In this document: positions 39,967-52,950 of the stretch, piece by piece
Position numbering within the stretch: position 1 is the stretch's first letter
Layout of the letters: the number at the start of each line of letters is the position of its first letter
Origin: Escherichia coli
GTDB taxonomy: Bacteria > Pseudomonadota > Gammaproteobacteria > Enterobacterales > Enterobacteriaceae
Assembly: GCF_003018255.1 (NCBI RefSeq)
Contig: NZ_CP027440.1
Strand: one strand, 5' to 3'
Length of the DNA stretch: 64,000 nt
The notes under the pieces: generated by a model
Databases searched by the model: none
Seen by the model: the letters and a program-made list of their open reading frames with translations, nothing else
What the model was told of the DNA's origin: nothing
Made by a program: the position numbers and the translations under genes

Positions 39967-42716
<2,750 letters not shown>

Positions 42717-42917
42717 TTATTTCGCATCCTCTTCGCAAACACAGTGCTGACAATTCAGCAGCCTGATATTAGGCACTCAACTAATACGCTGCTGACTCTG
42801 TCCTCAACACCAGATATTTTCCCTAACCCAATAGTGTATGAGAAAAGATTTAACGCTGATAAACTAATCCTTTATGGTTAGGAGAAAAAATAATGTGATT
42901 ATTCTGGGCTCTTAACA

Positions 42918-42931
42918 TTGATCGTTATCAA
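42918..42931 (-). promoter_or_regulatory. FNR (CRP/FNR-family) binding site upstream of ydhY
   Basis: Perfect match TTGAT-CGTT-ATCAA to the FNR consensus TTGAT-N4-ATCAA, about 200 bp upstream of the ydhY start in an AT-rich region. Confidence 0.7.
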
Positions 42932-43171
42932 TTAAAATCACAAAGCAAGAAATTATAAGTGAACTGATATTTATTATCATTTGAAATAAATTTAACTTAA
43001 CCGACAATTATTTGTGAAGTTCATCGCAGAAAATAAAAATAACTTTATCGCTATAAATTAAAATACACACCGAAATTCGTATAATTTCAGCAGTTGTTAT
43101 TTAGAATGATTAACTGGACCGCAACTGAAGCAAGAATATCAGGATGAAGCTTACCGCCTCATCCTGAATGG

Positions 43172-43381
43172 TCATTTTACCAGTGCGTTAATGACGGTTT
43201 CCATCGCCTGCTTTTCCAGCTCACTGCGCTGAATGCGTTTATTGGCTAATGCTGTACGTAATACGCCTGCGATAACAATATGCTTTGGTTCCTGCCCCAG
43301 ATCGCGCATTTCCAGCACAACTTTACCGACAACTCTGCACATTTCTCGGTACAGTTCATCCTCTTTTGTCCGATTTCCCAT
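43172..43381 (-). CDS. fumD: small fumarase D (formerly ydhZ)
   Basis: 69 aa ORF MGNRTKEDELYREMCRVVGKVVLEMRDLGQEPKH...; recognised as YdhZ/FumD. Confidence 0.85.
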   Translation of the reverse strand: MGNRTKEDELYREMCRVVGKVVLEMRDLGQEPKHIVIAGVLRTALANKRIQRSELEKQAMETVINALVK

Positions 43382-43716
43382 TCTTTATACCTATTTATCA
43401 TGCCAACTATCAGCATATATCAATCTAACCAATTAAACAAAAATCAAACAAAATCAGACAAATAACGCGATAAATTATTTTAACTGTAGCAATTGAGCGA
43501 TGATGTATTTATACACCGGATGAACTTTCACTTATCTTCACAGTGACAACCCCGGCACCAGACGTTGCGCAAACAGCGAAGTTTTTGCGTAACCTTTTCC
43601 CTGGAACGTTAAATCTTTGATAACAATTTATTGTCTAACAAGTTGTATATTTTTTGAAACGCTGTTTTTGTTTTCCTTTTGGATTAATTTCAGCGTATAA
43701 TGCGCGCCAATTGACT

Positions 43717-43732
43717 CTTGAATGGTTTCAGC
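43717..43732. promoter_or_regulatory. candidate Cra (FruR) operator upstream of pykF
   Basis: CTTGAATGGTTTCAGC; reverse complement GCTGAAACCATTCAAG matches the Cra half-site GCTGAAAC; pykF is a known Cra-repressed gene. Confidence 0.5.
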
Positions 43733-43937
43733 ACTTTGGACTGTAGAACTCAACGACTCAAAAACAGGCACTCACGTTGGGCTGAGACACAAGCACACAT
43801 TCCTCTGCACGCTTTTTCGATGTCACCTATCCTTAGAGCGAGGCACCACCACTTTCGTAATACCGGATTCGCTTTCCGGCAGTGCGCCCAGAAAGCAAGT
43901 TTCTCCCATCCTTCTCAACTTAAAGACTAAGACTGTC

Positions 43938-45350
43938 ATGAAAAAGACCAAAATTGTTTGCACCATCGGACCGAAAACCGAATCTGAAGAGATGTTAGCT
44001 AAAATGCTGGACGCTGGCATGAACGTTATGCGTCTGAACTTCTCTCATGGTGACTATGCAGAACACGGTCAGCGCATTCAGAATCTGCGCAACGTGATGA
44101 GCAAAACTGGTAAAACCGCCGCTATCCTGCTTGATACCAAAGGTCCGGAAATCCGCACCATGAAACTGGAAGGCGGTAACGACGTTTCTCTGAAAGCGGG
44201 TCAGACCTTTACTTTCACCACTGATAAATCTGTTATCGGCAACAGCGAAATGGTTGCGGTAACGTATGAAGGTTTCACTACTGACCTGTCTGTTGGCAAC
44301 ACCGTACTGGTTGACGATGGTCTCATCGGTATGGAAGTTACCGCCATTGAAGGTAACAAAGTTATCTGTAAAGTGCTGAACAACGGCGACCTGGGTGAAA
44401 ACAAAGGTGTGAACCTGCCTGGCGTTTCCATTGCCCTGCCAGCACTGGCTGAAAAAGACAAACAGGACCTGATCTTTGGTTGCGAACAAGGCGTAGACTT
44501 TGTTGCTGCTTCCTTTATTCGTAAGCGTTCTGACGTTATCGAAATCCGTGAGCACCTGAAAGCGCACGGCGGCGAAAACATCCACATCATCTCCAAAATC
44601 GAAAACCAGGAAGGCCTCAACAACTTCGACGAAATCCTCGAAGCCTCTGACGGCATCATGGTTGCGCGTGGCGACCTGGGTGTAGAAATCCCGGTAGAAG
44701 AAGTTATCTTCGCCCAGAAGATGATGATCGAAAAATGTATCCGTGCACGTAAAGTCGTTATCACTGCGACCCAGATGCTGGATTCCATGATTAAAAACCC
44801 ACGCCCGACTCGCGCAGAAGCCGGTGACGTTGCAAACGCCATCCTCGACGGTACTGACGCAGTGATGCTGTCTGGTGAATCCGCAAAAGGTAAATACCCG
44901 CTGGAAGCGGTTTCTATCATGGCGACCATCTGCGAACGTACCGACCGCGTGATGAACAGCCGTCTCGAGTTCAACAATGACAACCGTAAACTGCGCATTA
45001 CCGAAGCGGTATGCCGTGGTGCCGTTGAAACTGCTGAAAAACTGGATGCCCCGCTGATCGTGGTTGCTACCCAGGGCGGTAAATCTGCTCGCGCAGTACG
45101 TAAATACTTCCCGGATGCCACCATCCTGGCACTGACCACCAACGAAAAAACGGCTCATCAGTTGGTACTGAGCAAAGGCGTTGTGCCGCAGCTGGTTAAA
45201 GAGATCACTTCTACTGATGATTTCTACCGTCTGGGTAAAGAACTGGCTCTGCAGAGCGGTCTGGCACACAAAGGTGACGTCGTAGTTATGGTTTCTGGTG
45301 CACTGGTACCGAGCGGCACTACTAACACCGCATCTGTTCACGTCCTGTAA
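43938..45350 (+). CDS. pykF: pyruvate kinase I
   Basis: ORF track is 542 aa in-frame from 43722; true start is the internal ATG giving 470 aa [40 protein letters not shown]. Confidence 0.95.
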
Positions 45351-52626: not shown

Positions 52627-52669
52627 CGATTTACCTCACTTCATCGCTTTCAGCGTATAACAGCATGTT

Positions 52670-52688
52670 AGTGATAATGATTATCAGT
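52670..52688 (-). promoter_or_regulatory. Fur box in the sufA promoter
   Basis: GTGATAATGATTATCAGTT matches the Fur consensus GATAATGATAATCATTATC, about 45-60 bp upstream of the sufA ATG. Confidence 0.65.
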
Positions 52689-52950
52689 TCAACCCAGCAA
52701 ACGCAGGGACTTTAGCGTAAAACATGCTTTTTACCTGCTTTTAATAAGCATAGACCCTGATGTGTGGGTTAACAGGCACGCTAAGAATTAGGTATCTCAT
52801 TGTTAGATAATGATTATTATCTAAGGAGCATTAAGGCTGTGATGAAAAAGAAAAAGTTGTATTGAAAATGACTATTTAAGGGATAGGTAAAAAAGTGCAG
52901 CGTTCAGAAATAAGAAAACCCTTAAGTCTGTGCGACACAGGCTTAAGGGT

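Follow-up and report, generated by a model that had tools for sequence, protein, structure and literature searches.

A perfect FNR palindrome upstream of ydhY in Escherichia coli and the conserved promoter arrangement around it

What does a perfect FNR palindrome do in the AT-rich DNA upstream of the E. coli gene ydhY, and if it activates this gene from the usual class II position, what might act on the long leader that such a position implies? The window we analysed is a stretch of 64,000 nucleotides in which a sequence-only reading had noticed a match to the FNR consensus without mismatch at 42918-42931, in a 455 bp AT-rich region upstream of ydhY. Both statements were confirmed by measurement, as TTGATCGTTATCAA on the plus strand (TTGATAACGATCAA when read in the direction of ydhY) matches TTGAT-N4-ATCAA at 10/10 specified bases, and the spacer between the fumD stop (43172) and the ydhY ATG (42716, minus strand) is 455 bp long with a G+C content of 33.4%.

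The palindrome and its setting

The genes and the one flanking structure that define the locus are listed here.

39967-42153, minus strand: ydhV (open reading frame)
42090-42716, minus strand: ydhY, the first gene of ydhYVWXUT, encoding a ferredoxin-like protein of 208 aa
43139-43167, minus strand: intrinsic terminator-like hairpin just 3' of fumD, with a 12-bp stem followed by a T-rich tail
43172-43381, minus strand: fumD (= ydhZ; open reading frame)

Upstream, the ydhY control region is bounded by this hairpin. At the other end, an in-frame TAA lies immediately 5' of the ydhY ATG, and because of this the coding region cannot reach further upstream and shorten the leader. Open reading frames of 20-31 aa in the ydhY leader and spacer were without support. 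On the far side of fumD, the open reading frame at 43718-43930 (plus strand; 43736-43930) corresponds to the small protein YnhH, which is annotated just upstream of pykF in K-12.

Apart from the FNR palindrome, the window has no match to TTGATNNNNATCAA that is free of mismatches; 0.02 matches would be expected by chance (estimated from dinucleotide-preserving shuffles, with 2 of the 100 giving any match). The centre of the palindrome, at 42924.5, is 208.5 bp upstream of the ATG. When we looked for a second FNR site in the spacer, the best other match was 8/10 and located about 334 bp upstream of the ATG; this secondary match is 7/10 in K-12 and is without conservation. Myers 2013 report one single FNR site at ydhY (PMC3688515).

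The 1.5-kb region is matched in 5425 of 5426 complete E. coli genomes, with ydhV, ydhY and fumD as the annotations. We considered promoter disruption by insertions in some of these genomes and rejected it, as in one of the two strains concerned, E. coli AH20I049 and E. coli CEA212U, an IS5 is located between ydhV and ydhY, and in the other the variant, an annotated extra 'hypothetical protein' which overlaps the ydhY 5' end and probably comes from a duplication, lies inside ydhY. The FNR site is untouched in both genomes.

The comparison was made over 30 loci obtained by a YdhY search, in the genera Escherichia, Citrobacter, Leminorella and Limnobaculum; 26 of them are Escherichia and Citrobacter loci with enough upstream DNA, and three are Budviciaceae loci. 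A perfect FNR site is found in 26/26 of the Escherichia and Citrobacter loci at 155-241 bp from the ATG. Its ten specified bases are 100% conserved, compared with a mean column identity of 79% over the surrounding 154 columns, and conservation of the spacer within the site is 87% (26 loci, site-anchored). The three Budviciaceae loci have a 9/10 site, TTGATAACGATCAC.

Citrobacter sp. NCU1 has two ydhY loci in this set (L008 and L025, with 93% and 88% identity to the query), each with its own perfect FNR site, –10 element and long leader, and the ydhY operon appears to have been duplicated along with its control region in this strain.

Anatomy of the ydhY promoter

In class II FNR promoters the site is centred near –41.5 (within about 1–4 bp) and overlaps the –35 region, and in those which depend on the activator a poor –35 is expected. 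The corresponding elements of the ydhY promoter are as follows.

42918-42931, minus strand: FNR binding site, with the centre at 42924.5 corresponding to –42.5 (from sequence, conservation and Myers 2013 Table S6)
42912-42917, minus strand: –35 region TGTTAA (–35 to –30), 2/6 to TTGACA
42890-42895, minus strand: –10 element CATTAT (–13 to –8), 4/6 to TATAAT (from fixed spacing and conservation)
42882, minus strand: inferred transcription start, C (from the published –42.5 position and the sigma70 summit)

The weak –35 and activator-dependent layout are the usual anatomy of a class II promoter, and a simple sigma70 scan of the minus strand from the FNR site to the ATG found no self-sufficient promoter. 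In all the Escherichia and Citrobacter loci the –10 hexamer is found 23–28 nt past the end of the FNR site, and its column identity is 99%. The same order is seen in the Budviciaceae, in which the FNR box is followed by the –10 and then by a box of two heptamers in 7-2-7 spacing, described below.

Published ChIP-seq and ChIP-chip data show FNR at this site, and the FNR-dependent expression of the operon is likewise known from published experiments. Table 1 of Myers 2013 places ydhYVWXUT in category 1 (direct FNR activation), with a ChIP-seq peak at 1,752,688 (U00096.2), one FNR site at –42.5, and sigma70 occupancy and expression which are both higher without oxygen, and the operon is given as 'Activated' in Table S8 (PMC3688515). 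The identical 14-mer is listed in Table S6 at 1752702, as a predicted site marked under an FNR ChIP-seq peak, and the peak itself is at 1752706 in Table S5, which is 2.5 bp from the site centre at 1752708.5 (PMC3688515). Anaerobic activation of the ydh operon by FNR, proposed from the palindrome alone, is thus in agreement with published data, and the comparison with FNR ChIP-seq peaks that had been suggested as a check finds the same 14-mer beneath the peak. Sigma70 occupancy at ydhY was 46.9 under aerobic and 177.4 under anaerobic conditions, a 3.8-fold difference (Table S2), and the aerobic-versus-anaerobic value for ydhY in Table S12 is 0.25, a ratio which may run either way (PMC3688515). 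Myers 2013 cite Partridge et al. 2008 for prior FNR binding and for control by FNR, NarL and NarP (PMC3688515), and the title of the latter paper (Microbiology 154:608) refers to NarL/NarP control of ydhY-T.

The anaerobic sigma70 ChIP-seq summit is at 1752666 (Myers 2013 Table S1; PMC3688515), which is exactly the FNR site centre of 1752708.5 minus 42.5. It should be noted that we have the published –42.5 position second-hand, through a citing paper and not from the start-mapping study itself. From this position and the sigma70 summit we infer that ydhY transcription starts near 42882; with the site centre at –42.5, the leader is 166 nt long, close to the unusually long leader of about 160 nt that had been anticipated for a class II site. 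The start region reads TTTTTCTCC, with C/T at 42882-42883. Transcription would then begin on a pyrimidine, either the C or the T just 5' of it, whereas starts on a purine are more usual. The K-12 leader is 165 nt, compared with 166 nt in the window, as the result of a 1-nt deletion.

Taking the explanation as a whole, the palindrome is almost certainly the site from which FNR activates the ydhYVWXUT promoter in class II fashion. Such a site has already been published for ydhY, and the reading is therefore correct but not new. In the absence of oxygen, the [4Fe-4S] FNR dimer would bind the palindrome centred at –42.5, where it overlaps a very poor –35, and recruit RNA polymerase to the weak –10 through contacts of the kind expected at class II FNR promoters. 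Transcription would then start near 42882 and produce an mRNA carrying the 166-nt leader.

Further regulators, the leader and competing explanations

Two further boxes and the leader lie around the promoter core.

42865-42880, minus strand: NarL/NarP-type 7-2-7 inverted heptamers TAACCAT-AA-AGGATTA, +3 to +18
42966-42984, minus strand: Fur-box-like 19-mer TCAAATGATAATAAATATC, centred at –93, 14/19 to the consensus GATAATGATAATCATTATC
42717-42881, minus strand: remainder of the ydhY 5' leader, holding GGGTTAGGG, a hairpin and a nearly invariant block

The 7-2-7 box has two mismatches to TACYYMT-NN-AKRRGTA (6/7 and 6/7), and the window holds 3 matches at this level, about as many as the 2.7 that chance would give. 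Its position is conserved in all 30 loci and the Limnobaculum box is nearer the consensus (TACCCCC-TT-AGAGGTA, 6/7 and 7/7), and this combination of positional conservation and improvement fits the published NarL/NarP repression. The box is likely to be the operator for nitrate/nitrite repression of ydhY, with phospho-NarL and phospho-NarP probably repressing by occupying it.

The Fur-like 19-mer is located 50 bp upstream of the FNR site. Its 14/19 match is a level reached by 6% of shuffled spacers, and column identity over the 19-mer is 93% in the 26 Escherichia and Citrobacter loci. Strong, overlapping Fur-box matches are also present on both strands at 52667-52691 (3 and 4 mismatches to the 19-mer, with none expected by chance), and presumably correspond to the sufA promoter's known Fur operator. 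Fur occupancy near ydhY and an effect of Fur on its expression were reported by Banerjee et al. 2020. Their ChIP-seq summit for Fur is at 1910890 in CFT073, which is 274 bp 5' of the ydhY ATG, and ydhY expression in the fur mutant was 0.072 of wild type, a RyhB-independent drop of about 14-fold (PMC7157518). The Fur-like box is 259 bp upstream of the ATG and so 15 bp from this summit, which makes it a candidate for the site of the published peak. From Escherichia to Citrobacter, the FNR box, the –10, and the putative NarL/NarP and Fur boxes keep what by alignment is a fixed arrangement.

The spacer is also one of 78 predicted 'promoter islands' with many potential starts, and is H-NS-bound in every data set examined (PMC3661553). 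At ydhY, loss of hns and stpA takes the FNR ChIP-chip signal from 0.29 to 1.82 (PMC3688515), and the sigmaS holoenzyme is preferred at the ydhY promoter region in vitro (PMC3141248). H-NS on the AT-rich spacer limits the occupancy of the site by FNR, and Fur bound near –93 would raise ydhY expression, possibly by countering H-NS in the manner of ftnA.

It had been suggested that the long leader leaves room for additional regulation. Additional regulation does exist, and to FNR can be added the NarL/NarP-type box, the Fur-like box and H-NS on the spacer, but the known layers (NarL/NarP, Fur, H-NS and sigmaS) act on DNA and are mostly outside the body of the leader.

The alternative for the extra layer is that the leader carries a structured RNA regulator (a riboswitch, an attenuator or an sRNA target) which matters more than promoter-level control. 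None of the 30 loci has a leader shorter than 93 nt, and the 37 nt before the ydhY ATG (42717-42753, minus strand), adjoining the ribosome binding site, hardly vary across Escherichia and Citrobacter. Of these, the 21 nt nearest the ATG, GAAGAGGATGYGAAATAAATG, are shared by Leminorella and Limnobaculum as well, a conservation which on this comparison would exceed the need of a ribosome binding site alone. There is in addition a hairpin of 7+6 bp at 42756-42794 (minus strand). Against such a regulator, a search of Rfam with 42000-44000 found no match at E<=1, and the leader has a minimum free energy of –48.7 kcal/mol with z = –1.57, as 13 of 200 shuffles fold as well. RNAalifold gave a weak consensus for 11 leaders (–9.5 kcal/mol; covariation term –0.36). 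The hairpin is specific to Escherichia and not conserved in Citrobacter, and the Citrobacter koseri leader, which is 113 nt long, is missing the segment between two GTGTTG direct repeats and is without the middle hairpin region, which suggests that this segment of the leader is dispensable. Leader length itself ranges from 93 to 199 nt, and the Fur effect is RyhB-independent (PMC7157518). Given the lack of an Rfam match, the weak fold and almost no covariation, neither a riboswitch nor an attenuator was accepted as the main explanation of the leader. There is no good evidence for the leader as a structured RNA regulator, and we regard this explanation as improbable, although it may still apply to the block beside the ribosome binding site.

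Within the leader, GGGTTAGGG at 42821-42829 (minus strand, +54 to +62) is conserved and is complementary to CCTAACC at +1 to +7 (42876-42882), inside the NarL/NarP box. Both elements are conserved in Escherichia and Citrobacter, and at the paralogous Citrobacter locus L025 there is one compensatory change and one broken pair. That GGGTTAGGG and the 37-nt block form a control layer which has not been described before is an unlikely proposition; it could take the form of an RNA stem that forms on the full leader only and affects translation or stability, or of DNA looping through a further NarL/NarP heptamer at a distance.

The FNR site is symmetric, and the palindrome might also, or mainly, serve a divergent promoter on the plus strand, from –41.5 relative to a start near 42966, with a transcript antisense to fumD. 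The plus strand has TATAAG (5/6 to TATAAT) at 42954-42959, which is at class II spacing, and the prediction of a 'promoter island' with many potential starts (PMC3661553) would accommodate such a promoter. However, the TATAAG hexamer is found in E. coli proper only, and at this position the rest of Escherichia, and Citrobacter, read TTAAAA or TTAAAT. The sigma70 summit is on the ydhY side of the site (the centre minus 42.5), there is no plus-strand gene downstream before pykF, and Myers 2013 assign the peak to ydhY alone (PMC3688515). We therefore consider a divergent promoter very unlikely. The hexamer is part of the near-palindromic CTTATAAT at 42952-42959, which offers a consensus TATAAT on the minus strand (with ATGATA as a –35 inside the Fur-like box) as well as TATAAG on the plus strand.

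Finally, a chance palindrome with no regulatory role might be imagined in DNA of 33% G+C, and some perfect E. coli FNR sites (within sucC, purU and ybcM; Myers 2013 Table S6, PMC3688515) are unbound in vivo, but the expectation of 0.02 perfect sites per window and the invariance of the ten bases over two genera while flanking columns vary speak against it, and published FNR occupancy and FNR-dependent expression refute it (PMC3688515), leaving it next to no probability.

The ydhY promoter among known systems

The class II FNR activator site of ydhYVWXUT adds little new biology, but it confirms that an experimentally validated class II FNR promoter, along with its unusual leader of 166 nt, can be recovered by reading nothing more than raw sequence. 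Our modest additions come from comparison: a promoter footprint that spans genera, and a 19-mer that may be the Fur box behind a published peak.

The nearest known system is the E. coli K-12 ydhY-T promoter, which is the same locus in a different E. coli lineage from that of the window. The control regions are 98% identical, with 17 substitutions and one extra base in 491 aligned positions; all of these lie outside the FNR 14-mer, the –10 and the 7-2-7 box, which are identical in the two.

At narG, FNR also acts from a class II position, –41.5, and control is shared with NarL, which activates from far upstream together with IHF. In contrast, the NarL/NarP-type box of ydhY overlaps the start and the published effect is repression. 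The narG FNR promoter has the identical 14-mer TTGATCGTTATCAA (Myers 2013 Table S6, 1278982; PMC3688515), although the spacer is read in the opposite orientation relative to transcription at the two promoters.

The ydhY promoter also resembles that of ftnA, which is Fur-activated and H-NS-silenced, in having a RyhB-independent positive effect of Fur, an upstream Fur-like box and AT-rich DNA bound by H-NS. At ftnA, Fur relieves silencing by H-NS, and by analogy Fur may do the same at ydhY.
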